A stretch of 64,000 nucleotides of DNA, from the NCBI GenBank assembly GCA_963666345.1, contig OY762721.1:3584001-3648000 (forward strand). The letters run 5' to 3'. The notes beneath the pieces are model-generated. The model had not been told where the DNA came from. It searched no databases and saw nothing but the letters and a program-made list of their open reading frames with translations. Positions 1-61,942 of this stretch are shown one piece after another (the stretch's first letter is position 1; every line of letters starts with the position of its first letter). A program made the position numbers and the translations under genes. Source of the DNA: Desulfatiglandales bacterium (lineage in GTDB: Bacteria > Desulfobacterota > DSM-4660 > Desulfatiglandales > Desulfatiglandaceae).

Positions 1-2670
1 AACCAGTATATTTCTGAAGTTGGTGATAAACATGATGGATGGATAAAAACTTTCTGGGATCAGGGTTATCATTACAATACTAAATGCCCTGAGATTAGAG
101 GAGAGCAGGCTCCGGTCGGTTGTACGGCAACAGCAATGGCTCAAATAATTAATTTTTGGGAGTATCCCACAAGCGTAAGTTTTTCAGATTTGCCAAAGGA
201 GCAAGGTGGGGATGCTTATGATTATTGGGATAAATGGGGAATTCTGCCAATAAATAAAATAAATATATTTGAAGATTCATATGCCTCAGTAAATGATCTT
301 AATAACGCTTTAGAAACCATAGATTACTATACTGATGAAGAATCTCAATCTAGCTCTAGTGCTAGAGATGAACAGGCCTATTTTTGTTTTGGTGTTGGTG
401 CCAAACTTGGAATGAAATATCATAAAGAAGAATCAGGTATACGTTTAAGTGCGGATGCTTACCTAGAGGGTTTTAACTATGGTTCAGCTATATGGGAGTT
501 TAAGGATTATTGCATATGGAACAAATATGAAGACACTATTATTGAAAATTTAAAGAAGGGATGGCCAGTTCAAATTGGGATCATCACGGATGGCTCAGAT
601 GGTCATTCAATAGTTGTAGATGGTTACAAAGATTCAGGTGTTGAACGTTTCCACACCAATTGGGGATGGGGCCTTGGTTACACTGGTTGGATAAATTTAC
701 CCGATACTGGGACTGATTATAAATATGTACAACAAATTGTTTACAATATAGCTCCCTACAAAGGTTGGAACCAATGGGGTGCAGATGAAAGAAATTCCTT
801 CAGCACACTTTATAACGCACCAGATGAAAATGTTATAAAAGAGAAATGGAAAGTTACATGCCCTTCAAGCCATAGTTTCAGTGGCTTAGTAGTTGGATCA
901 GCTAATAATATTTATGCTGCTTGCTCACCAGATGGAACTTCCCAGCACCCCAAAGTCTATATGTACAACCAGTTCGGTTCAAAAACTGGAGATCCAATTG
1001 ATATTCCAGAAAATGTTAAAATTGAATTTATATGCCAAGAAACAGATCCTGAAAGCTCAGATAGGTATGTATTCATTTCCACAGAAAACGGATTCGTATA
1101 CAGGATAGATACCCGCAGTCGAACATGTAATAAAATATGGACAGAACCAAATAGTGATGACATCGATTGTTTAAAAATAGATTCAGACGGCTATTTATAT
1201 GCTTGCACGCTTCATAACCTTTACCAATTAGATTGCAATGGAAATGAAAAATGGCATTATTCTGCACCTGGTGACACGATGTTTTTAGGAGGTGGGAAAA
1301 ATCCCGCAATCGATGAGAAAAGGAATAAAGTCTATGTTGTATATTATGATTCAAATTCTAAAACGCCTTATCTTGTCCAGCTATCCAGGGCATCTGGGCC
1401 TAGTTTTATGAACACAAGATCATTTGGATCTGTCACCATCCCAACCATAAGAACTCCAATAGTAGGTCCTGATGGCACTATTTATATAGGAATATACACA
1501 ACTCTTTATGCACTTAATTATAGTGATATAAATGGTCCAACAAAGTGGACTAAAAATTTAAACTGCAGAAATGGCTGTTTAGATCCTAATGGTGAAAAGA
1601 TATATGTTCCATTATGGGAACAGGAGGATGGTCAATGGTATAATAAAATACGAGCAATGAATACCCTAAATGGTGATGAAATATGGGAAATCAAATTTCA
1701 GCAAGACCCTTCTAAAGATGATATTTGGCAGCCATATACAGCTGGTAATGGTATGGTATGCTTTACTGTTGAAACAGGTGGAGACCCTGAAACCTATACC
1801 GTTTACGGCTATCAGGATAATGGAAATAGCTACGATAAAAAATGGCAATTTGATGCTGGAACATCAGGCGGGGATTTTGCCTTCGGTCCGGGATCTACTT
1901 TATATTTTTGGGGAAAGACCGGTGTTGCTGAAACAATTTATGCTATTTCACAGGGTGAAACTGGAAAAGCCAATGAAGCTGGTATGGGCTTCACAGATAA
2001 TTCATCTCCCGAAAGTCCTCATAGTCCGACTCCAAATGATGGGGCTACTGATTTAGATATAGATGTTTTCCTAGATTGGGAGTCTGGAGATCCAGATTTC
2101 CATGCTTTAAAGTACTCAGTTTTTGTTGGAAAGCAAGGTAGTATTATGGTGCCAGTTGTTACTGACTTAACAAATAGCAATTATACATTGGAAAATTTAG
2201 AAGGGGGGAAGCTTTACAATTGGCAGATTATTGCAAGTGATGGCCAAGCAATTACAAAAGGTCCAACTTGGGCGTTTACAACAGAAATAGAAGATTTATG
2301 TCCCGATGATCCAAACAAAACAGAACCTGGCATATGTGGGTGTGGTGTGCCAGATACAGACACAGACGGAGATGGGGCTGCAGACTGTATTGATTTAGAT
2401 GACGATGATGATGGCCTACAAGATATTATTGAGGATGTAAATCAAAACGGAGCAGTTGATTCGGGAGAAACTGATCCTCTTAATCCTGATAGCGATGATG
2501 ATGGGATGTTAGACGGATGGGAAGTGCAATATGGTCTTGATCCTCTGGTAGATGATGCATCGGGCGATCTAGATGGTGATGGGGTTTTAAATTATCAAGA
2601 ATATCTTAACGGCACAGATCCATCAAGACCACCATTTTTGCCCTTCTTACCATTACTCTTAGAGGATTAG
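1..2670 (+). CDS. C10-family (streptopain-like) cysteine protease with beta-propeller, FN3-like and Asp-rich Ca-binding repeats; 5' end outside window
   Basis: Frame is open from base 1: WDQGYHYNTKCP...PVGCTATAMAQI (catalytic Cys 121-123), GHSIVVDGY, FHTNWGWG. Then PQQ-like propeller repeats, PTPNDGA...GPTWAFTT, DTDGDG/DSDDDG repeats and a C-terminal PFLPLLLED tail. Confidence 0.85.
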   Translation, partial: NQYISEVGDKHDGWIKTFWDQGYHYNTKCPEIRGEQAPVGCTATAMAQIINFWEYPTSVSFSDLPKEQGGDAYDYWDKWGILPINKINIFEDSYASVNDLNNALETIDYYTDEESQSSSSARDEQAYFCFGVGAKLGMKYHKEESGIRLSADAYLEGFNYGSAIWEFKDYCIWNKYEDTIIENLKKGWPVQIGIITDGSDGHSIVVDGYKDSGVERFHTNWGWGLGYTGWINLPDTGTDYKYVQQIVYNIAPYKGWNQWGADERNSFSTLYNAPDENVIKEKWKVTCPSSHSFSGLVVGSANNIYAACSPDGTSQHPKVYMYNQFGSKTGDPIDIPENVKIEFICQETDPESSDRYVFISTENGFVYRIDTRSRTCNKIWTEPNSDDIDCLKIDSDGYLYACTLHNLYQLDCNGNEKWHYSAPGDTMFLGGGKNPAIDEKRNKVYVVYYDSNSKTPYLVQLSRASGPSFMNTRSFGSVTIPTIRTPIVGPDGTIYIGIYTTLYALNYSDINGPTKWTKNLNCRNGCLDPNGEKIYVPLWEQEDGQWYNKIRAMNTLNGDEIWEIKFQQDPSKDDIWQPYTAGNGMVCFTVETGGDPETYTVYGYQDNGNSYDKKWQFDAGTSGGDFAFGPGSTLYFWGKTGVAETIYAISQGETGKANEAGMGFTDNSSPESPHSPTPNDGATDLDIDVFLDWESGDPDFHALKYSVFVGKQGSIMVPVVTDLTNSNYTLENLEGGKLYNWQIIASDGQAITKGPTWAFTTEIEDLCPDDPNKTEPGICGCGVPDTDTDGDGAADCIDLDDDDDGLQDIIEDVNQNGAVDSGETDPLNPDSDDDGMLDGWEVQYGLDPLVDDASGDLDGDGVLNYQEYLNGTDPSRPPFLPFLPLLLED

Positions 2671-2718
2671 GAATTTATTATTTGATACTTCGCTAACATG
2701 ATACCAAAGGCAGCTCAA

Positions 2719-2761
2719 CAGCCATGCATATACAGCATCAATAGCTGTTATTGCATGGCTG
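2719..2761. repeat. Imperfect palindrome H1
   Basis: CAGCCATGCA-tat-ACAGC-atcaata-GCTGT-tat-TGCATGGCTG. Confidence 0.8.
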
Positions 2762-2820
2762 ATCTACCTAGCTACCTCAGCTATTCCAAATCCATATCAC
2801 CAGCTCAGCAGCTTCAAATC

Positions 2821-2849
2821 TTGACATTCCGGCATAATCACAATAAAAT
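2821..2849 (+). promoter_or_regulatory. sigma70 promoter for the riboswitch leader
   Basis: TTGACA(2821-2826)-17 bp-TAAAAT(2844-2849). Confidence 0.75.
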
Positions 2850-2862
2850 AGTTTGTAAATAA

Positions 2863-2951
2863 TCATGAAGATTGACGTGAGGCAACTGGGCCTGTGACCG
2901 TCAAGCCAACCTAGCTCCAAAAGGTGGCACCAGCCCGTAAGGGAACCATGA
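2863..2951 (+). ncRNA. SAM-I (S-box)-like riboswitch aptamer, variant
   Basis: P1 UCAUG/CAUGA; J1/2 AAGA; P2 UUGACG/CGUCAA with UGA/UGUGA kink-turn and GGC-AACUGG-GCC; P3 GCC-AA-CCU...AGG-U-GGC; pseudoknot CUGG/CCAG; P4 CCC-GUAA-GGG. Confidence 0.8.
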
Positions 2952-2977
2952 GGTCAAGAAGACAAACGGACAGATGG

Positions 2978-3007
2978 CCTCTCCCTATTTCAGTGAGAGG
3001 TTTTTTT
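2978..3007 (+). terminator. Intrinsic terminator of the riboswitch expression platform
   Basis: CCTCTC...GAGAGG stem followed by T7; competing antiterminator GAGGTCA(2950-2956)/TGGCCTC(2975-2981). Confidence 0.8.
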
Positions 3008-3036
3008 ATTTGTCCATAGACAAAGGAGAAGCTGAT

Positions 3037-3213
3037 ATGACCGAAAATAAAAAGAAGACCCCTAAGGAACAAAAATCACAACGTCCATTATGCACGGACT
3101 GGTCGTTCACAAAGCAAGTGCTGCCGTTGGGCAGCTTCATAGCTGGAGGAAGGATTTTGAAACCCTCCAGGATGAATAGTTCTGAAGATAAATCAACAGA
3201 TAAGAAAGAATAG
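3037..3213 (+). CDS. Small Lys-rich protein A (58 aa), unknown function
   Basis: SD AAAGGAG before ATG 3037; paralog of the next ORF (GGRILKPSR...DKKE). Confidence 0.7.
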   Translation: MTENKKKTPKEQKSQRPLCTDWSFTKQVLPLGSFIAGGRILKPSRMNSSEDKSTDKKE

Positions 3214-3246
3214 CTACAGCTGAAAATTGAAAAGGAGAATATGGAT

Positions 3247-3423
3247 ATGGCCACAACTGGAAAGAAGACCCAGCAGGAACATCGATTATCGATGGAAGAG
3301 CTGCCTTTGGATCATCCACTGTACAAGACAGGCTTCGTGGTTGGAGGAAAGATTTTGAAGCTGTCCAGAAAAGACAACCATGAACAAGGATCTAAAGATA
3401 AGCCAGCAGATAAGAAAGAATAG
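3247..3423 (+). CDS. Small Lys-rich protein B (58 aa), unknown function
   Basis: SD AAAGGAG before ATG 3247 (alternative start 3241); GGKILKLSR...DKKE. Confidence 0.7.
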   Translation: MATTGKKTQQEHRLSMEELPLDHPLYKTGFVVGGKILKLSRKDNHEQGSKDKPADKKE

Positions 3424-3435
3424 CTGGTACAGCTG

Positions 3436-3479
3436 CAGCTGTGCAATCACAGCAGATATTTGCTGTATCTGCACAGCTG
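3436..3479. repeat. Imperfect palindrome H2, same geometry as H1
   Basis: CAGCTGTGCA-atc-ACAGCA-gatatt-TGCTGT-atc-TGCACAGCTG. Confidence 0.8.
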
Positions 3480-3523
3480 GCTGTCGATGTCTCAATAAAT
3501 TTGATTGTCAGATATGGGGTAGG

Positions 3524-3544
3524 AGCCTCGGAGAGGAGAGCTGT
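3524..3544. repeat. 21-bp direct repeat, copy 1
   Basis: AGCCTCGGAGAGGAGAGCTGT; 20/21 identical to 5445-5465. Confidence 0.85.
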
Positions 3545-3568
3545 TATGTTTGATCTTAGCTAGTTCAT

Positions 3569-4410
3569 TTAATTGTAGGGCCTCAATCTTTCGCTCACTA
3601 TTGCATTCAGCTTTCTGACATCCTCGGTAAGATTCAAGACATGCATTTTTCGGTGACAGTTTGGACATAAGGCAACAGTATTCTCAATTACATCCTCACC
3701 GCCTTCTGACAACCAGGTTAGGTGGTGTTCTTCAAGATACGGCACTCCTTTTCTATCCTTGAATGGAGCATCATTCCCACAAAGCTGACATTTTCCGTTA
3801 GCTATTCTTTTTGCAAGTTCAGCTACATAAACGTTCCTCTCGTAGGTTTTTGAGATGACCTGTCTACGTCCAACTCCTTTTCTTGAATATTTGGCTCTCC
3901 TCTCAAGTTCAGAATAGCTTAACCTAGAAGCCTCCCTCTGTTTTTTCTCCTGTTTGCTCTGTATGAGTTTATCCGGTGTCGGCTTATAAGCTACACCTGC
4001 TTGAAGCTTTAATGGGAAAACCCAAACATATCTCAAATTGTGGTCTATGTCTGGTTGTGTTTCTTTATAAGGTTCACTGGCCAGTTCAACCTGGCCTTGG
4101 TATATATAATTTCCTCTGTCAAACACTTCGAAAAGAAATAAACTAACATCAGATTCGGGAGATTCAGCCACCGTTTTATTCTGATTAGCATCAATTCGTT
4201 GATCACCTCTCAATCCCATGCCAGTGTAGTGAAAGACATCATCTATCCATCGGTCTTCATAAATGGATTTTGTAGGATCAGAGACAAGAACAAGACTATT
4301 CGTTGTAAGGGATCGTCTCATCCCCCCTTTTGTGGGCTGCATTTAAATATTTCTCGCAGTTGGTCGTTTTGGAGGATATCTCCTACCTCTAGATTTGGCT
4401 CAAATGTCAA
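3569..4410 (-). CDS. SRA-like/HNH modification-dependent endonuclease; frameshift near 4322-4331
   Basis: GGMRRS..NSLVLVS...HYTGMGLRGDQ N-domain and CQLC...LEEHH...EGGED...NTVALCPNCHR HNH. TTG at 4410 with SD GAGGAGG gives ...LREIFKCSPQ, which joins GGMRRS only after a -1 shift. Confidence 0.8.
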
Positions 4411-4816
4411 TTTCGTTCCTCCTCAATTTGTCAACGAAGGGAAGATCAGCTGGTGCAAAATCATATTGATCTAGCTGGCTAGGCTCAACCCATCTGTAAT
4501 CATCATGAGCACTGGCTATGATATCACCACTCTGCCAATAGGTGTTAAAAGCTAGAAGGTTTATTGATATGTGGTCATAGTGATAAACACTAGAGCCTAT
4601 AAACATTCCAATGGAAGTAACTATCCCAAATTCTTCCATTAGCTCTCTTTTCAAGCATTGCTCAGCAGTCTCACCGTTCTCAACTTTTCCGCCAGGAAAC
4701 TCCCATTTATTTGGTAGGCTCCCAGTAACCTTCCTTTTGGCTATGAGAATTTTACCATCTTTCACCATAATGGCTGCAGTAACATCTACGATATGGGGAT
4801 CACTTTTTTCAGTCAT
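4400..4816 (-). CDS. NUDIX hydrolase, MutT-like
   Basis: WEFPGGKVENGETAEQCLKRELMEE Nudix box. Confidence 0.9.
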   Translation of the reverse strand: MTEKSDPHIVDVTAAIMVKDGKILIAKRKVTGSLPNKWEFPGGKVENGETAEQCLKRELMEEFGIVTSIGMFIGSSVYHYDHISINLLAFNTYWQSGDIIASAHDDYRWVEPSQLDQYDFAPADLPFVDKLRRNEIDI

Positions 4817-4845
4817 TAATTTTCCTTCTAGTATAGCTTGAACAG

Positions 4846-5397
4846 CTATTGGTTAGATGCATTTTCACCATCTGCTAACAGCCCATATATAATTGTTGGC
4901 ACCGATATGGGTAAAACGGTGAAATATCTTAAGGCCAAGGCAAAGTTGGCCATGTTCCTAACACTTGATCTTCTATTAGGGAAAAATTCGTATTCATTAT
5001 GTGGCACAATTAACACTGCAAGGCTAAGCAATCCATTCTGGAGCCCATATTGAAACTTGTAGAAATCACGGTACAACGTAGCACTATTGCCAAACTGTAT
5101 CTCACCAAAAACAAGACCCTTAGAAAAATCGCCTATCAAACGAGGGGATTTACTCAATCGGGGCTGCAATCGCCAACCTATCTCAGATAAGGCATCAGAA
5201 AACGATCTGTTATATGCAGCTTGATGATGAAGCAAGTTCTTGGTTGTGTTCAATGAGAAATCTGGAGACCATGCGTGAGCAGTAAGGACATCAGACAATT
5301 CCTGAAGCTCTGCATTAACAGAGGATAGCAGCACCTCGCCACAGTGCAAATATTTAGTAAGGTATCTCATATTTGTTTCTAACGCCTGGTTGTCCAC
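4846..5397 (-). CDS. BglII/BstYI-like restriction endonuclease
   Basis: GDFSKGLVFGEIQFGN...YRDFYKF (D...ExQ active site pattern). Confidence 0.7.
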   Translation of the reverse strand: MDNQALETNMRYLTKYLHCGEVLLSSVNAELQELSDVLTAHAWSPDFSLNTTKNLLHHQAAYNRSFSDALSEIGWRLQPRLSKSPRLIGDFSKGLVFGEIQFGNSATLYRDFYKFQYGLQNGLLSLAVLIVPHNEYEFFPNRRSSVRNMANFALALRYFTVLPISVPTIIYGLLADGENASNQ

Positions 5398-5444
5398 CTA
5401 GTTTCATTGATCATGGCTATCACATTACATGTATATTTACTAAA

Positions 5445-5465
5445 AGCCTCGGAGAGGAAAGCTGT
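5445..5465. repeat. 21-bp direct repeat, copy 2
   Basis: AGCCTCGGAGAGGAAAGCTGT. Confidence 0.85.
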
Positions 5466-5490
5466 AGGATTATCTTTTAACTGCTAAAAA

Positions 5491-6090
5491 TCATTTTGAC
5501 GTAGGATCAAATCTAGTCAAGAATTTCTTAATTTCTTCATCTGTAGAATTTTCCGTAATGCCATTCTCTTTTATAAGCTTTTCGATTTCATGCAATTCAA
5601 GGAATTGTCGTTTTGATAAGACATCTTTAGGATCTTGATCACCCCATTTTGGGCCAAATGTTTTCACAGCCCAATACATTACTTTAGCCTTAATTTTGTT
5701 CACGCCTCCACACAGGCAAGCATCGTAAAACATTCTATGTGCTGTTAGAGAAGATCGACAAATTTTTTCACGAAGATCACAAGCTACATCATGAACTACA
5801 GACGCCCTGCGATAATTACCTACAAATGGTGGGCCAATCCATTTATTCCATAGTAGCCATGGGATGCTTGCTCCATTAATTTCAGAACCTCTAGGAGCAG
5901 GCCATTGTTTTCCACTAGGATCAACATAATAAAAATCGTCAAGAAGTATGACATTTCTATCTGGCTCGGGCTCCACCATCCACTCAACTCGGACATCATT
6001 TAAAAAATGTCCATTAGAATCAGCGTACAAGTTAGATGCCAAAAGAATTAGGAGTCCTATGAAGATTTTAAAGAAAACTTTATATTTCAT
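5491..6090 (-). CDS. DUF1353-like exported protein
   Basis: Signal peptide; GASIP...Y..ASVVHD...MY.AV..FG pattern. Confidence 0.7.
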   Translation of the reverse strand: MKYKVFFKIFIGLLILLASNLYADSNGHFLNDVRVEWMVEPEPDRNVILLDDFYYVDPSGKQWPAPRGSEINGASIPWLLWNKWIGPPFVGNYRRASVVHDVACDLREKICRSSLTAHRMFYDACLCGGVNKIKAKVMYWAVKTFGPKWGDQDPKDVLSKRQFLELHEIEKLIKENGITENSTDEEIKKFLTRFDPTSK

Positions 6091-6178
6091 AAGTCCTCAC
6101 AATATTAATATATCTGAAACAAGAGGCTTTGTCTGAATGTGCAGTTCCAATTACTGATGAAAACATACAGCTCAATCT

Positions 6179-6454
6179 CTATTTAATCTCAAAGCCCTCG
6201 TAATAAACCACCATCTCATCAAGTATCCGTTTCTCCCATGGATCTTTCTGGCTCATGCAGCTGCCACATGCTCCGCTATCGGCATCTCTATAAGCACCAA
6301 TGGTTGGATCTAGACCGCCATTCCTGAAGACCCTCTGGTAGTATATACAACCACAAGAAAGCAGATAGAACCTTAAGCCTGTCACTTCACCTGGAAAGGA
6401 CTGAAAGATACTTCTTGCAAGCCAGGTGATTGTTTCTGAGGTGCTGGATTCCAT
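6179..6454 (-). CDS. Hypothetical protein (Cys motifs)
   Basis: 91-aa ORF collinear with neighbours; CGC and CxxC. Confidence 0.55.
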   Translation of the reverse strand: MESSTSETITWLARSIFQSFPGEVTGLRFYLLSCGCIYYQRVFRNGGLDPTIGAYRDADSGACGSCMSQKDPWEKRILDEMVVYYEGFEIK

Positions 6455-6517
6455 ATATTTGCCTTGTAGTTCTTATTTATAAACTGGAAGGTTCCAAGCT
6501 ACATTATGTATTTTCGG

Positions 6518-7363
6518 TTAAATCTTATCAGATTTTTCCCTGTTGCAGTGCTCACATAATATTTGAATGTTTCTTTCAGTATTGCTTCCCCCTTTTGAAA
6601 CTGGGATGATATGATCAAACTCCAAGTTTTCTTTGCTACCACATTTTACACACTTCCCTCCGTCTCTTCTCCAAACAAACATTCTGACAGCCTCAGGTAT
6701 TGGTTCTCTTGCTAACTCTGGTTCAGATGCCAATCTCTCAATTATTTGAAGCTCCTTTTGGAACCTGTCGAGCTTTTTCATCTCTTTAACATAATATTTT
6801 TTAACTAATAGTTGCCGGTCTTCTTGACTATGTATGTCAGGCTTATTGAAATAATATAGATTCTCTTTATAAACGTAGAAAGTATAGCTTTCAAATTCCT
6901 TCATTATTTCATTTTTTTTGGTATGAATTTTGTCTTTAGCATTTCTCACTCGTTCGCTAAATTTAGCCATTGCTTCTTCATATTTCTGTGCTTCCCTTTC
7001 ATTTCTGTCATTATCCCTGTCTTCTGCAGCCCATTCTCTATCCCAATGCTTGCTTTTAGCTATATCGTACCTACGGTCAAAAGGATCAAGAGCTGTTCTA
7101 AATTCAGGAACATAAGTGTAATATCTTTTAGGTTTTTTAGGAGGGACATTAGGAACTTTTATATTACTTAAGTCAATATTTAACAGAGCTGCAGACAATA
7201 GTTGAGGATCATCTTTTTGAGTTCGTTTAAATTCAGCCATATGTTTTTGCGAAGAAAACTCAATCAAGCATGGTCGACCCAGAATTTTTATCGTAATTTG
7301 ATCAAACTTGACCTTCTCATTCTCGGTCTTCAAGAATCCTGTACTCAAAACCTTTAGCGCCAT
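6518..7363 (-). CDS. HNH endonuclease (C-terminal HNH), paralog 1
   Basis: VWRRDGGKCVKCGSKENLEFDHIIPVSKGGSNTERNIQILCEHCN. Confidence 0.85.
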   Translation of the reverse strand: MALKVLSTGFLKTENEKVKFDQITIKILGRPCLIEFSSQKHMAEFKRTQKDDPQLLSAALLNIDLSNIKVPNVPPKKPKRYYTYVPEFRTALDPFDRRYDIAKSKHWDREWAAEDRDNDRNEREAQKYEEAMAKFSERVRNAKDKIHTKKNEIMKEFESYTFYVYKENLYYFNKPDIHSQEDRQLLVKKYYVKEMKKLDRFQKELQIIERLASEPELAREPIPEAVRMFVWRRDGGKCVKCGSKENLEFDHIIPVSKGGSNTERNIQILCEHCNREKSDKI

Positions 7364-7480
7364 TTGAATCCCACTTCAAAACCTGAGTTTTTGACCGATA
7401 TTCTCTGGAAAATGCGATTGTAGTAACCCTTATACAAAATGTGCTTTTAGCGAAACAGAATCATATTTCAATAATCCTTA

Positions 7481-7879
7481 TTAGCCTTTTTCTTCAAGGC
7501 TAACTCTAACAGTCGTTTTTTTCTTTTTTTTAACTTTTTTTGGGGTGCCTTTTATCTTTGCCTCCCATTTACCACAATTAAAATCAATCCCACCACCAAA
7601 ATCCATATGTGTAAACCATCCTCTATCAACTTCCTCCTCCTCATCAACCTCAACAACTAAATCATGTCTCTCAGCACTGTATTCATCTTTCAGATTTTTA
7701 AGAAACTGCAAGGCAAATTTAATAGCAGTATCAGGTTGTTCACGTTCGACTTGAGGGACAGTCGAAGCAGAAATCGTTGCAACGTCAGTGGAATATGGAA
7801 AAATCTGGGTGTTAGGCTTACCGCCTATCGGAGTTGCTGTTACTTCAATAATAGGTTCATCCTCGTATTTGTTGGACAT
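7481..7879 (-). CDS. Hypothetical protein
   Basis: ATG 7879 with GGAG SD, directly after the HNH paralog 2 stop. Confidence 0.55.
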   Translation of the reverse strand: MSNKYEDEPIIEVTATPIGGKPNTQIFPYSTDVATISASTVPQVEREQPDTAIKFALQFLKNLKDEYSAERHDLVVEVDEEEEVDRGWFTHMDFGGGIDFNCGKWEAKIKGTPKKVKKKKKTTVRVSLEEKG

Positions 7880-7898
7880 AACTTTCTCCAAAAAACAT

Positions 7899-8672
7899 TT
7901 AGATTTTGTTAGATTTCTCTCGGTTGCATTTCTGGCATAGAATTTGGATATTCCGTTCGGTATTACTACCGCCTTCGGACACAGGTATAATGTGGTCGAA
8001 TTCAAGGTTCTTCTTGCTCCCGCATTTTACACATTTGCCCTGGTCTCTTCTCCATACGGCAAATCTGACCTCTTCAGGAATCGGCTCCCTTGATCGCTGA
8101 ATCTCCATCGACTCCATTTTTTCAAACAGCCGTATTTCCTTTTGCAGTTTTCTGAATTTCTTTTCCTCTTTAAAATAGTGCTCTTTGACCAGTAGTTTTT
8201 GTTCATCTTCAGTATGCATATCATCAGGGTCAAAATAATAGATGTTATTTTTGAATAAGTAGTAGTTTCTCTCATGAATTATATGTTGATTTACAGATAC
8301 CATATTATCATTTATCGGTAACGGTCCTAAATGAGCACCGGTTCCTAAAACCGGTTGCGGCTCATTATGCTGATTTTCTATATCAAAATTAAAAAGAGGA
8401 TGGAATGCAAAATAGTATTTATATTTTGTTATATTAGAATGACATGCAATAATGCTAACTTTTGAGTTTGGGTCGTTATGATAACTTATTGCATAAGATC
8501 TATAAATGTCCTTTATCCTATGCTTTAATGATATGGGACTATTATTATTTGGAAAAGGGGAGCTATGTTCTTTATGAAAGCTTTTTTTGAGCATTTCTGA
8601 ATATTCCATAAGCGCTTTAATATGCTCATCATCCAATTCCCCAATATCTCTACAAAGTATTTTAACCGTCAT
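7899..8672 (-). CDS. HNH endonuclease (C-terminal HNH), paralog 2
   Basis: VWRRDQGKCVKCGSKKNLEFDHIIPVSEGGSNTERNIQILCQKCN. Confidence 0.85.
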   Translation of the reverse strand: MTVKILCRDIGELDDEHIKALMEYSEMLKKSFHKEHSSPFPNNNSPISLKHRIKDIYRSYAISYHNDPNSKVSIIACHSNITKYKYYFAFHPLFNFDIENQHNEPQPVLGTGAHLGPLPINDNMVSVNQHIIHERNYYLFKNNIYYFDPDDMHTEDEQKLLVKEHYFKEEKKFRKLQKEIRLFEKMESMEIQRSREPIPEEVRFAVWRRDQGKCVKCGSKKNLEFDHIIPVSEGGSNTERNIQILCQKCNREKSNKI

Positions 8673-8860: not shown

Positions 8861-9592
8861 CTATGAAGCTGCGTGTTTCATTCTCCAGCTTTCGTTACCT
8901 GTTTCTATAATTTCACAATGATGAGTCAACCGATCAAGCATGGCCGTAGTCATTTTTTTATCTCCAAAGACTTGGGGCCATTCACCGAAGGTCAAGTTGG
9001 TGGTGATTACTATGGATGTCTGTTCGTAGAGTTTTGATATAAGATGAAAGAGCAGTTGACTGCCGTTTTTGGAAAAAGGCAGATAACCCAGTTCATCGAG
9101 GACCACAAGATCAAATCGAAGTAGTCTTGCTGTGATTTTGCCGGCCAATCCAATCATTTTCTCCTGCTCAAGCTCATTTGCCAGATCCACCAGGTTATAA
9201 AACTTGCACTTCCTGCCATTCCTTATGGCCTGGGCCGCTATAGTTATGGCTAAATGGGTTTTGCCCGTACCGGTGCCACCTACAAAAATCAGGTTGATAT
9301 GTTCGGCTATAAAATCACCCTGATAAATAGACCTAATCTGGGCTTCATCAACACAGGCCCCGTTAAAATCAAAGCCATCGATATCTTTAAGGACAGGAAA
9401 CCTGGCCTGTCCCATACGATATCGGATACTCCTTATATATCTTTCGGCAGCTTCAGCCTTGAGCAGTTCCAGGATTACCTTTTCAGGCGTTGAATGGCTC
9501 TTGCGTCCATTGGAGACAACTTCATCATAAATGGACTGCATACCCCGCAACTTTAGTTTTTCCATCTGGTCCATGATATCATTGCGCAGCAT
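8861..9592 (-). CDS. istB: IS21 helper ATPase
   Basis: [26 protein letters not shown]. Confidence 0.95.
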
Positions 9593-11096
9593 GGTATCCC
9601 TCCCTTACCAAACGTTCATAGCGGCGGCAGTCTGCTATGGGCTCTTGCTTGAGAATCAGATGGGAGGGGATACCCAAATCAGGCGTGCAATCCTGATCCT
9701 GATCCCTGTTTAAAAGATTGAGAACCACCTCTTTACTTACGGCCCTTATCTTTAGGGCCTCCTTACAGGCTTTACTTACAGCCTCAAGTCCGTAGAAAGG
9801 AACAGCATTTAGAATGGCCACAAACTGACGGTCCCAGTCGGAAAAACGGTTTTGAAGCCCATTTAGGACGCCTTCGACAGGATCGGGAAGTTGCCAGTCT
9901 TTAAAGGGGGCTCCATTACGGAGAGCCCCGGGCTTACGTTCAAGGACCGGGACATAATGCCAGGGATTAAAAATAGTCTTGTTCTTTCCAAAATGCCTAT
10001 CATGCTCTCCTACGATACAACCGTTATTTACTATCACTATCCGATCGGCATATACTCTCATATAGACCGCTTTACCCACCTGGCTGCAATTAACGCTGTA
10101 TCGGTTCCGGTCATAGGTTACAAGTGAGCTGGGGGTAACCCTGGCTGGACGTTGTGCATATCCATCAAAGAGAGGTGGTAGATTTATCAGATAGGGTCTC
10201 TCTTCACTGTAGACCTGCCAAACCGTCTTATCAGATATTGTTGGATGCTTACGGGTCTTTGCCCAGGTGATGCATTGTTCTCTAAGCAGCTCGTTTAGGT
10301 GTGTGAAATCCCTGGCCTTGATTCGGGGAGTGAAAAATCTCCTTCTGACCACACCTACCTGGTTTTCCACCTGACCCTTTTCCCAACCTGCAGCAGGGGT
10401 GCAGCTTACCGGTTCAAATAAATAATGGGAACACAGTTGGCTGAAGCGGCTGTTGAACTGTCTTTCCCTTCCTCCCAGGATCTTGTTAACCACTGTTTTG
10501 AGATTGTCATAGATGCCTTTACGGCAAACTCCCCCAAAAAACTCAAAGGCCCTGATATGGGCATCAAACACCATCTCCTGGGTTTCTCTGGGGTAGGCAA
10601 TACAAAGGAAGTAGCGGCTGTGACATAACCTTATATGTGCAACCTTTGCCTTTACTCTGCTTCCGTCCAGATCTACCCACTCATGACTCCAGTCAAACTG
10701 AAAGGCTTCTGCAGGATCAAATACCAAAGGTATAAATACCTCCTTTGGCAAGCTCCTTTGATCCTGGCGCCATCTTTGAACATATCTCCGTACGCTGTCA
10801 TAGCCACCTTCGTAGCCGTTGAGTTGCAGCTCTTCAAAAAGTATCTGGGCTGTCCTGCGCAGTTTTTTGGGCAGTTTCTCGTCTTCTTCCAGAAAGCCTT
10901 TCAGCATGTCTATAAACGGCCCCAGCTTGGGTCTTGGCTGGTTGCTTCGTTCGTACTGAAAAGATGTTTCTCCGCTCCTTATCGCCTTTTTTACTGTATT
11001 TTTGCTAAGGCGCAGATCCTTCGCTGTCTGACGTATGGATTTGCCATCTCTGAGAACAGCTAATCGTATCTTACGGATTGTTTCCACTGTGAGCAT
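9579..11096 (-). CDS. istA: IS21 transposase
   Basis: N-terminal HTH; FQFDW, YDNLK, WEKGQVE (DDE). Confidence 0.95.
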
Positions 11097-60031: not shown

Positions 60032-61942
60032 ATGAGTACTGAGAAGCTGGATACAGCATTAGACAGAGAGATTGAAATCCTGCAACAAGAAGGCCGTGCC
60101 AAACCTCCCGAAAGGATCATTACCGACTACATCGCTCCGAGCGGCAAAAATGGCCCCAGATATAGATTGAATGGGGTTGATGGTCAGTTTTATCAGGATG
60201 AATTCGAACAGCTATCTTTCCCTTTCAAACCACGAGGACCTGGCAGAAGCCGCCGATATCGCAACAAAGAGGTTCGGGGTGGGTCCCGGAGCGGTCAGAT
60301 TCATCGACGGGACGTTCGAAGCCCATATTACCCTTGAAAAACGAATCGCCCGGTTTGTGAAAAAGCCATGTGCAAAGATCTTCAATTCGGCCTACACCTC
60401 AAACTGCGGACTGGCCCTGGCCATTTCAAACAAAAAAACCTTCTGGGTAGGCGACCAGCTCAACCACAACAGTATTATCAGGGCGATGAGGATCGCAAAC
60501 ATCCCTGGCGCAAACAAAAAAATCTATGAACACAACAACATGCACTCCCTTGAGGAATGCCTCACTCAGGTACCGGAGGAGGCGGAAAGGGTGATAATCA
60601 TCTTTGACGGCATATTCAGCATGCGCGGGGACTATGCACCGATAGATGAGATACAGAAAACCGCCCTTCGCTTTGACGACAAATTCAAAGAAGGAGTGAT
60701 AACGGTTGTCGACGACTCACACGGTATAGGCGCATACGGACAAACCGGAAGGGGTACGGCCGAATACTCAGGCGCCAGTCCTGACGTGATAATAGGAACA
60801 TTCGGAAAGGCGTTCGGGGTAAACGGCGGTTTTATCGCGGCTAGCGACAGTGTTATAGAGGCGGTCAGACAGAAGGCGGACACATATATCTATACCAATC
60901 CTCTTGGTGTGGCTGATTGTGCCGCTGCCATAAAGGCGATAGACATCTGCGACAGCGCCGAAGGAGCAGGGCTTTTGCTGAACCTGAGGGAAAGGATCAC
61001 ACAATTCAGAAATGGAATAGAAGGATTGGGTCTTGAATCTATCCCAGGTCCTCATCCGGTTGTTCCGGTGCTTGTAAGGGATACGGATAAGGCGCACAGC
61101 ATGGTCAGGTTTCTCTTTGAGAGCGCCGATTAAAACCGGCAAGAAGTAGGGACTGAAAGTGTCCCATGATGAAGGGTTAGCCACCCGCATCAGCCTTGAG
61201 TCATGCGCTGGCAATGGTAACATTGTCGGCGAAGCATTGACAGGGGAAAGTGCAGGCTGAGTATTGAGCCTCGTAATAGACATAAACCCAAGCGCCGATG
61301 TGCTTCAAAGACACAGAAGGCAGTATCTGCAGGTCCGATATGGTGAGGAGATGCAGGGCTTGGCGGGGTCGGAGACCTCATACATGCACGGAAGCTTGTT
61401 GCGCGGGAATCGGGAGGCCCTGTAACTGGCCTTGATTAGATTGCAAAAGGTCCGTACTGAAAATCCCAAGGGAGTAAAGCAGTAATGAATGGTTACAGGG
61501 AGTCTGACAGCCCCATAGTATCTAGGAAGCCTTCGAACAAGACAGGCGACAACAAGTCTGAGGCGGAGAAGGTGGAGAAAAGGGGGTTGGCCAAGGGGAA
61601 TTCGGTAGAGCGAAACAAGGGCCGGGCACTGAACCGGGGAACCTTGCAAAGTGAGCTTACGAGAATACGGCAGAGTATGTTTACCAATAACTTTGTGCGT
61701 CATTACCCGAGGCAGGAGAGCAGTGCATTAGCAGTGCACGTCACGCCAGCGGCGTGATGCGGGGGGTGCCGAGCAATCGGCATTCCTACCGCGATCAGGG
61801 AATTCTTGTTGTCGGACTCACTTTTCCCGTTGTTCCCAAGGGTGATGAAACCTTGAGATTCCAGCTCAACGCGGCCCACACAGAGGCCGATGTCGACTAT
61901 GTGCTTAACATGATTTCCGAAGTGCTGAAACAGGAAGGATGA
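60032..61942 (+). pseudogene. kbl: 2-amino-3-ketobutyrate CoA ligase, frameshifted and intron-interrupted
   Basis: NSNSYL, DDSHG, TFGKA, FPVVPKG...RFQ; extra T at 60188-60191; intron at 61121-61795. Confidence 0.85.
61121..61795 (+). ncRNA. ORF-less group II intron (IIB-like), degenerate
   Basis: 5' GAGCG (consensus GTGCG); GAGTCTGACAGCCCCATAGTA D1-D3-type motifs; RT start and end fused; partial D5; D6 GGGGGTGCCGAGCAATCGGCATTCCTACCGCGAT. Confidence 0.85.

Follow-up and report, generated by a model that had tools for sequence, protein, structure and literature searches.

A self-contained module of about 600 nt was found at positions 2821-3423 of a 64,000-nt stretch of DNA from a Desulfatiglandales bacterium (assembly GCA_963666345.1, contig OY762721.1, positions 3,584,001-3,648,000 of the forward strand). 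It consisted of a promoter, an aptamer of the S-adenosylmethionine (SAM)-I class, a terminator with an antiterminator, and two open reading frames (ORFs) of 58 amino acids (aa) each. The whole stretch is referred to as the window and its genome as G000; other genomes, loci, and proteins carry G, L, and P numbers, respectively. We judged it likely that the leader is a working, miniaturised SAM-I riboswitch acting by transcription termination, and that it governs nothing but two copies of a small disordered protein, whose family is undescribed and horizontally mobile. Control of sulfur and methionine metabolism is the textbook role of SAM riboswitches. The riboswitch class itself is known, and what is new is its recurrent coupling to a non-metabolic, mobile small-protein family that has no database description.

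The leader and its predicted switching

The aptamer was located at 2860-2954 on the plus strand. The Rfam SAM-I (S-box) model RF00162 aligned to it over its full length (model positions 1-108) with 36.6 bits and an E-value of 1.7e-6, obtained in E-value mode in an 801-nt search of 2700-3500. Both the covariance-model alignment and unconstrained minimum free energy (MFE) folds gave four helices around a four-way junction. P1 comprised 5 bp (2863-2867/2947-2951), P2 comprised 6 bp (P2a, 2872-2877/2899-2904) followed by 3 bp (P2b, 2881-2883/2890-2892), P3 retained its six proximal pairs with a bulged A (2905-2911/2923-2928), and P4 was made of 3 bp closed by a GUAA loop (2934-2936/2941-2943). The kink-turn internal loop of P2, the tandem G.A region, was recognised at the sequence level, with UGA (2878-2880) opposite UGUGAC (2893-2898) aligning to the consensus GA / UGAA. 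The CUGG of the P2 loop (2886-2889) was complementary to CCAG in J3/4 (2930-2933), and this pseudoknot pairing was also present in the aptamers of three other loci (L013, L014, and L033). The consensus blocks AU/AGA, GAGG, CUGG..CC, UGA, CAACC, GGUG, and AU were all kept. In the RF00162 alignment the A-U/U-A pairs of P1, the AGA of J1/2, and the CAACC/GGUG of P3 were identical to the consensus, and we take these to be the SAM-pocket contacts of the SAM-I structure. The first-pass annotation of this DNA had described a SAM-I-type fold with P1-P4, a kink-turn, and a pseudoknot, and the full-length RF00162 match together with the MFE fold bore this description out.

Upstream of the aptamer lay, as had been claimed earlier, a sigma-70-type promoter (TTGACA-17-TAAAAT, 2821-2849, plus strand). 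It matched the consensus at 11/12 positions, with a predicted start near 2856. It was the sole promoter-like site within 2500-3800. Shuffled sequence yielded 2.4 +/- 1.8 such sites; the count alone was thus not significant, but the position of the promoter fits. Downstream of the aptamer, an intrinsic terminator was found on the plus strand at 2976-3007, with the stem CCUCUC (2978-2983) / GAGAGG (2995-3000) followed by U7 at 3001-3007. A simple terminator scan missed it, its loop being longer than the 8-nt limit of the scan. Folding of the transcript truncated at the 3' half of the terminator yielded an antiterminator of 12 bp (2940-2986, plus strand), in which 2940-2944 and 2950-2956 paired with 2975-2986 in a duplex of -15.8 kcal/mol. 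Besides the last 2 nt of P1, this structure took up the 3' strand of P4, and it was mutually exclusive with P4, the end of P1, and the terminator. A terminator and an antiterminator that takes the last 2 nt of P1 had been proposed before; both elements were present, and the antiterminator proved larger than proposed, with the 3' strand of P4 also taken. The coupling between antiterminator and aptamer is therefore stronger than first described, and follows the classic S-box OFF logic.

Based on the anatomy of the leader, the switch would operate as follows. With SAM bound, P1 and P4 would be held closed, the terminator could form because 2975-2986 is left unpaired, and RNA polymerase would stop at the U-run at 3001-3007. 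At low SAM, 2975-2986 would instead be taken up by 2940-2944 and 2950-2956, which would block the terminator; the polymerase would then read through into both ORFs, and each would be translated from a Shine-Dalgarno site of its own. The assignment of the window RNA to the SAM-I class of OFF switches was supported by its sequence and architecture, and the peptides would thus be expected when SAM is low. The earlier proposal of a SAM-depletion module held up in this part; we found no support for its other part, the depletion of SAM by phage as the signal.

Compared with SAM-I/S-box leaders of RF00162 such as those of Bacillus yitJ and metE, the window leader shared the four-way junction of P1-P4, the kink-turn region of P2, the pseudoknot between the P2 loop and J3/4, the core blocks, and the OFF logic of terminator and antiterminator. 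It differed in scoring below the curated cut-off, in its short helices (P3 with the six proximal pairs, P4 with 3 pairs and a GNRA loop, P1 with 5 pairs), in an antiterminator that invades P4 besides P1, and in a cargo of two 58-aa proteins instead of a methionine, cysteine, or SAM gene.

The paired regions appeared to have been maintained as the sequence changed. Compared by eye with the canonical aptamers of Synergistales, inner P1, P2a, P2b, and proximal P3 all paired through double changes, including U-A to C-G and C-G to G-C in P1, G-C to U-A and to A-U in P2a, and G-C to C-G in P3. A further comparison was offered by a sediment metagenome (X3), in which 6 contigs covered the leader at 80-95% identity. 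G was present at 2883 in 6/6 contigs and C at 2890 in 3, which turns the P2b pair C2883-G2890 into G-C by a compensatory change. The indels of these contigs affected the loops of P3 and of the terminator. These contigs, which are short and of low depth, provide modest evidence suggesting selection on the RNA.

The cargo and its pairing with the switch

Both ORFs were on the plus strand and each was preceded by AAGGAG. ORF1 (3037-3213, AAGGAG 8 nt upstream) was a divergent family member (DWSFTKQVLPLGSFIAGGRILKPSR), and ORF2 (3247-3423, AAGGAG 9 nt upstream), starting at its second ATG, contained the family motif LDHPLYKTGFVVGG. The two were 38% identical (pairwise E 1e-7). As the first-pass annotation had stated, these 58-aa paralogs were the only genes downstream of the switch, the next gene being convergent; no gene for the synthesis or transport of methionine, cysteine, or SAM, the typical cargo of the S-box regulon, followed. 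No match was found for either peptide among Pfam, NCBIfam, PHROGs, or PADLOC models; PADLOC-DB 2.0 gave 0 families for both, with matches to neighbouring genes only, and a sequence profile search of the PDB gave 0 matches at E up to 10.

When ORF2 alone was used in a word-index search, only ORF2 itself was returned, and exhaustive HMMER was needed to reveal the family. With a two-sequence profile it found three real relatives, and a second round with these three gave 47 proteins with E-values of up to 0.1. All of them were annotated as hypothetical, and almost all had lengths of 49-200 aa. The family counts about 45 small proteins, all hypothetical, that share the motif P-D-[HD]-P-I-Y-K-R-G-F-[VA]-I-G-[GV], a basic N-terminus (M..TGKK..KGK), and tails rich in S, T, K, and E; a Shine-Dalgarno site and an ATG are placed 18-26 codons before the motif. 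The window peptides had the basic N-terminus, the motif at 18-26 codons from the start, and the low-complexity tail. ORF2 matched the family profile at 5.1e-21, and ORF1 was its divergent paralog, with an ortholog-like relative of 62 aa (P0002, exhaustive HMMER 3.3e-28). Moreover, one metagenome contig joined 3165 to 3364, giving a single hybrid ORF similar to P0002. Since this contig makes the junction and P0002 is close to ORF1, either the window pair is a tandem duplication or the single copy of the relative is a deletion.

We further investigated whether the switch accompanied the peptide elsewhere. DNA around family members was taken from genome, viral, and metagenome collections and from whole-genome searches, and was scanned with Rfam. 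In 7/21 distinct family loci the peptide was preceded, on the same strand, by a SAM-clan riboswitch with an intrinsic terminator behind it, and every SAM-clan match in the family loci was upstream on the peptide strand. In the window the aptamer was followed by the two tandem small ORFs. Similarly, a Synergistaceae metagenome-assembled genome (MAG) carried a SAM-I aptamer of 82 bits (L013, 431-539) and then a tandem pair of paralogous small ORFs (759-959 and 962-1141), and Synergistales genome G453 carried one of 81 bits (L033, 1209-1317) before a 51-aa peptide (1489-1641) and a convergent gene, so that the peptide was the only cargo, as in the window. In another Synergistaceae MAG an aptamer of 89 bits (L014, 2724-2832) preceded a 261-aa ORF, with the peptide from 3896. 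Verrucomicrobiota genome G1104 had two such loci, with the motif at the start of a 274-aa protein (L037, 59.5 bits, 1748-1862 on the minus strand, ORF 766-1587) and of a 223-aa protein (L038, 56.7 bits, 1265-1375, ORF 1498-2166). The seventh locus, on a soil metagenome contig, had a SAM-I/IV match of 49 bits (L020, 1065-1179) before a long ORF ending in the peptide. Terminators trailed the aptamers of all six loci outside the window (L013, L014, L020, L033, L037, and L038).

The Synergistales (L013, L014, and L033) and Verrucomicrobiota (L037 and L038) leaders were arranged in the same order as the window, with aptamer, intrinsic terminator, Shine-Dalgarno site, and an ORF opening with a basic stretch and PD[HD]PIY..G[FYW]. 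They differed from it in their aptamers, which scored 57-89 bits with full P3 and P4, in the 261-aa ORF placed before the peptide in L014, and in the motif forming the N-terminus of longer proteins in L037 and L038. The latter two proteins resembled each other over no more than their first 31 residues (77% identical), beyond which their C-terminal domains were unrelated; the conserved unit is therefore the switch together with the N-terminal motif. In its stand-alone, single-frame form the family kept a SAM-I switch in 6/8 loci. The pairing of switch and peptide is thus a real recurrent module, present in at least three phyla. That the window copy might be the relic of a methionine or cysteine operon which had lost its genes by deletion was ruled out, because homologous switches precede the peptide family in 6 further loci, and none of these was followed by a methionine or cysteine gene. 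The terminators of the shape GGCCUCUCC...GAGAGG, shared by the window with L014 and L033, were set aside as evidence for a common origin of the whole leaders, since they could have converged through the S-box antiterminator logic.

Two observations on individual loci are recorded here. A conserved protein without known function precedes the peptide in two Synergistales genomes, at L014:3130-3915 and in L035 (127-aa ORF, oriented 1056-1439), and it may be a partner of the peptide; the proteins preceding the peptide in L014 and L020 had no mutual similarity. L038 contained an additional degenerate copy of the motif at 2166-2369.

The distribution of the family was sporadic. It was present in 0/208 other genomes of the class of the window and in 0/400 other genomes sampled from its phylum (0/608 with the class set), in 9/261 Synergistales genomes, including one spurious and one degenerate case, and in 2/401 genomes of a Verrucomicrobiota sample. 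Searches by tblastn with a canonical family member found it in 0/50,697 phage records and 0/72,556 plasmid records. A match in G466 (L036) was the C-terminus of GrpE (..FQRGFLIGGKVLRASKV..), with weak similarity (E 1.3e-3 per genome) to the motif of ORF2, ORF1, and P0006 together with the strand after it; the match was treated as spurious and is probably due to chance. An RF00162 search found no match in the whole G000 genome or in 40 relatives, and this is weak evidence, as its lossy filter scored part of the candidates only and also missed the 36.6-bit match of the window. The window also escaped a covariance model (R1) made from three Synergistales aptamers, which proved too narrow. Since the family was not found in the 608 other genomes of the phylum and no canonical SAM-I was found in the 40 relatives by the lossy filter, the module looks as if it was imported into the window genome. 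Two further, decayed leader copies in this genome also speak for mobility.

Two viral contigs carried the peptide ORF nested in another frame of a giant ORF (L015:3544-3738 in ORF 1620-7718, and L016:3887-4105 in ORF 40-8046). The giant ORFs, of at least 2033 and 2669 aa, were identified as polyvalent proteins because they contained ART-PolyVal, RadC-like JAB, and DUF7178 domains. The same bases read ...ASPDDPIYKRGFVIGG... in the peptide frame and ...GRPDLQAWIRDRR... in the giant frame (+2), where they formed part of the segment GEYG..W..GRPDLQAWIRDRR..LLE.YSGEQL, and the Shine-Dalgarno site and ATG of the nested peptide sat in the codons of the conserved GEYG. The peptide DNA was thus homologous to a segment of two genes of the polyvalent kind, which the accessible part of Iyer et al. 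2017 (PMC5512222) describes in phages and conjugative elements. These genes differ from the module in that their main product is in the other frame; the window has no giant gene, and its giant frame is closed. The giant ORFs of L015 and L016 were 31% identical, and identical residues used identical codons at 18/28 positions inside the overlap versus 182/510 outside (Fisher one-sided p 0.0026). In simulation, given the +2 protein, the peptide frame was open by chance in 19-57% of synonymous re-codings, which weighs against dual coding inside the giant genes. These sequences only suggest that the giant genes yield the peptide as well, through overprinting.

The same homology raises the question of whether the peptides are translated at all. 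If the ORFs were shadow ORFs, the DNA would derive from part of a polyvalent-protein gene, whose purine-rich coding sequence would have left the peptide frame open as a by-product. The +2 reading of the same bases in the giant ORFs of L015 and L016, the conservation of that open frame in L012, L015-L022, and L030, and the chance openness seen in simulation could all be accommodated in this way. In the riboswitch loci, however, frame +2 did not persist: it contained stops in the window, L013, L014, L037, and L038, and in L033 it was open but had lost its motif. Scored by eye against the consensus in the window, L013, L014, and L033, frame +2 matched at 4-8/13 core positions, versus 10-14/14 for the peptide frame. 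The loci in which frame +2 was closed or degenerate were the loci carrying SAM-I switches. Moreover, the motif was kept in the riboswitch loci through synonymous or Arg CGN-to-AGA codon changes, and the alternative frame was broken by stops. Conservation of amino acids with synonymous codon changes argues for translation of the peptides, and so against the condition named in the first-pass annotation as refuting, that they are untranslated. Because the giant frame had stops or was off consensus while the peptide frame was kept, the peptide frame appears to be the one under selection in the riboswitch loci, and we consider shadow ORFs highly improbable.

Points against the reading and possible functions

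Several observations weighed against a working switch with a translated, functional cargo. The 36.6 bits of the aptamer fell below the Rfam gathering score of RF00162 (44.4 bits), and Rfam at gathering thresholds reported no match there, so that the covariance-model check gave a full-length match which the curated cut-off would not admit. The score was lost at four places: the three outer P1 pairs were unformed, the distal half of P3 was absent, J3/4 was 3 nt short, and P4 was a stump (CCC-GUAA-GGG). These shortenings explain the sub-threshold score, and the shortened aptamer could have lost ligand binding. The full-length MFE fold contained the terminator whether or not P1 was blocked, and switching must therefore be kinetic and co-transcriptional, as we infer from these folds. 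Two further leader copies in G000 had decayed, indicating that this lineage lets copies rot. Among the family loci, 14/21 were without a SAM riboswitch, although 3 of those had less than 250 nt of upstream sequence. As for the peptides, ORF1 compared with one diverged metagenome contig differed at 9 third, 7 first, and 10 second codon positions, with no enrichment at third positions (the count covers the 26 listed differences of the 34 in that contig piece). AlphaFold2 with a 28-sequence alignment gave a predicted local distance difference test score of 62 and no fold, with one short turn at the motif, and disorder was predicted. No family, structure, or defence model matched the peptides, and their function is guesswork.

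The sub-threshold score bears most directly on whether the leader is a decaying relic, in which the aptamer no longer binds SAM and the leader is a constitutive leaky terminator of an imported cassette that is being lost. The truncation of P3, P4, and outer P1, the foreignness of the module to its lineage, and the decayed leaders elsewhere in G000 are consistent with such decay. The two decayed copies were promoter-plus-leader sequences near C1:2.987 Mb, at 2986949-2987053 and 2987506-2987638, 550 nt apart (L011, about 2950-3090 and 3507-3639). The first had its P3-P4 deleted and its P2 pairs broken and was followed by a 129-aa ORF without a Pfam match, and the second was scrambled between P1 and P4. 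The window leader does not resemble these truly decayed copies: its remaining paired regions were intact through compensatory changes, its pseudoknot complement was kept, and its promoter, terminator, antiterminator, both Shine-Dalgarno sites, and both ORFs were intact. We therefore regard a relic as unlikely, and keep to a working riboswitch as the preferred reading. A tRNA-like T-arm fragment was seen just upstream of the first decayed leader (L011 2763-2779).

The peptides, each with one conserved short motif in a basic, low-complexity chain, would most likely act by docking this motif onto a partner protein. The switch and the motif behave as a portable unit, present in Synergistales and Verrucomicrobiota, fused to unrelated C-terminal parts in one genome (G1104), and not found in relatives. 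The partner would most likely belong to a restriction or defence conflict or to the supply of methyl donor for it, because of the neighbours of the family loci and the presence of the peptide inside polyvalent-protein genes of phages and plasmids; this is the least secure step, and the role that these two lines of evidence favour was guessed.

SAM matters in host-parasite conflict, as seen with SAM lyases, type I restriction-modification, and BREX. In a defence setting the module would sense SAM depletion, for example by phage SAM lyases, and its peptides would trigger abortive infection or, upon failure of host methylation, switch off the adjacent restriction nucleases. The OFF-switch logic is consistent with this, and so are the neighbours. 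The window had a type IV-like HNH gene, a NUDIX gene of candidate defence family PDC-S07, and a BglII-like gene, and type IV restriction genes adjoined family loci 3 times (the HNH gene of the window, Mrr_N at L013, and MrcB_N at L031). L014 had Cas3 and toxin-antitoxin genes (HicAB and MNT/HEPN) as neighbours, L019 a ResIII helicase, and L018 and L021 transposases and ParA. The copies embedded in polyvalent proteins with ART-PolyVal and RadC JAB domains point the same way, these proteins being counted as conflict weaponry in the part of Iyer et al. 2017 (PMC5512222) available to us. However, the peptides themselves had no PADLOC match, no membrane or toxin-like feature, and predicted disorder. 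The neighbouring nucleases were of different families, and in the window they were convergent, making a shared direct target unlikely. The neighbours of L033 were metabolic, no methyltransferase was present among the 31 window ORFs scanned, and the literature we had access to contained no paper in which a SAM riboswitch is connected with restriction or defence islands. The interpretation is plausible given these neighbours, and we put it forward tentatively, as a possible reading that is more doubtful than probable.

The first-pass annotation had gone further and inferred that the peptides act in abortive infection or in restriction alleviation. We found no sign that they are toxic or alleviate restriction: the window peptides were lysine-rich and hydrophilic, had no hydrophobic stretch, were predicted by AlphaFold2 to be disordered, and matched no PADLOC model. 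Similarly, a small toxin of a type I toxin-antitoxin system was rejected, as no hydrophobic membrane-spanning segment was present and AlphaFold2 predicted disorder.

Alternatively, the peptides may belong to the economy of SAM itself. They would bind an enzyme that makes or consumes SAM (for example SAM synthetase or a methyltransferase) and restore or spare SAM like other members of the S-box regulon, and mobile elements would carry them to ensure a methyl donor for the methylation that protects these elements. The only feature common to the seven loci, which come from several phyla, is control by a SAM-clan riboswitch, and the high retention of SAM-I in the stand-alone form would agree with such a role. 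However, no met, cys, or SAM gene adjoined any family locus examined, and the distribution was sporadic and mobile, unlike that of a core metabolic gene. This role seems to us rather unlikely. In its widest form, the proposal of a docking peptide under SAM control becomes that of a portable SAM-gated cassette (SAM-I switch, terminator, and N-terminal docking motif of about 30 aa) spread across phyla and mobile elements, standing alone, joined to interchangeable C-terminal domains, or overprinted within polyvalent-protein genes of phages, which would link the level of methyl donor to the activity of restriction or defence nucleases as an anti-restriction or restriction-alleviation factor. We offer this as a speculative extension with a low probability of being correct in full.

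Two known systems offered partial parallels. The small membrane proteins under c-di-GMP riboswitches in Clostridioides difficile are likewise the small-protein-family cargo of a metabolite riboswitch, in place of an enzyme or transporter, according to the accessible part of PMC13724677; that system differs in its ligand and in the membrane association of its proteins, the window peptides being hydrophilic and predicted to be disordered. In the portions available of PMC7877911 and bioRxiv 10.1101/2023.02.27.530186, on T3 SAMase and on restriction-alleviation or anti-restriction proteins, the outcome of restriction is linked to the level of SAM, as is also proposed for the module, although these proteins have no relation in sequence or fold to the window peptides. 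Within the same body of literature, no paper was found describing a SAM riboswitch with a small-peptide or defence cargo. The occurrence of SAM-I with a non-metabolic cargo in at least three phyla suggests that the level of SAM serves as a signal for something besides biosynthesis, and the neighbours of the family together with its copies inside polyvalent-protein genes point to host-parasite conflict. The apparent dual coding in giant phage genes, if true, would provide a clean example, from bacterial viruses, of an overprinted frame that became a free-standing gene later. The window aptamer also suggests that SAM-I variants which we judged functional may exist below the Rfam threshold.

Surroundings of the module

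A nuclease-rich islet was located on the minus strand at 3569-8672, convergent with the module. It encoded an HNH nuclease (3569-4342, matching the PADLOC type IV methyl-directed restriction endonuclease family mREase_IV at 8e-19, and given here as context only), a NUDIX protein (matching PDC-S07 at 1.8e-46), a BglII-like endonuclease, a DUF1353 protein, and two paralogous HNH proteins. The convergent nuclease cluster noted beside the module in the first-pass annotation was thus present as described. An IS21 element at 8861-11096 adjoined the islet.

Between ORF2 and the convergent HNH gene lay a long, near-perfect hairpin (3427-3486) of -35.7 kcal/mol (z -3.16, with 0/200 shuffles as stable), for which Rfam gave only chance-level microRNA-like matches. 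It is predicted to be a transcript end or barrier, a likely role, and may or may not be part of the module. Read-through from the module had been suggested to act as antisense to the nuclease operon; this is disfavoured, because the hairpin separates the convergent genes.

On the other side, a C10 peptidase domain and bacterial TSP3 repeats were seen in a large protein that looks secreted; it is encoded at positions 1-2670 of the window and ends 150 nt before the promoter. At curated thresholds, the sole RNA family reported by Rfam for the whole window was a group II intron domain at 61156-61378 (RF02005, 182.6 bits, E 2e-53).

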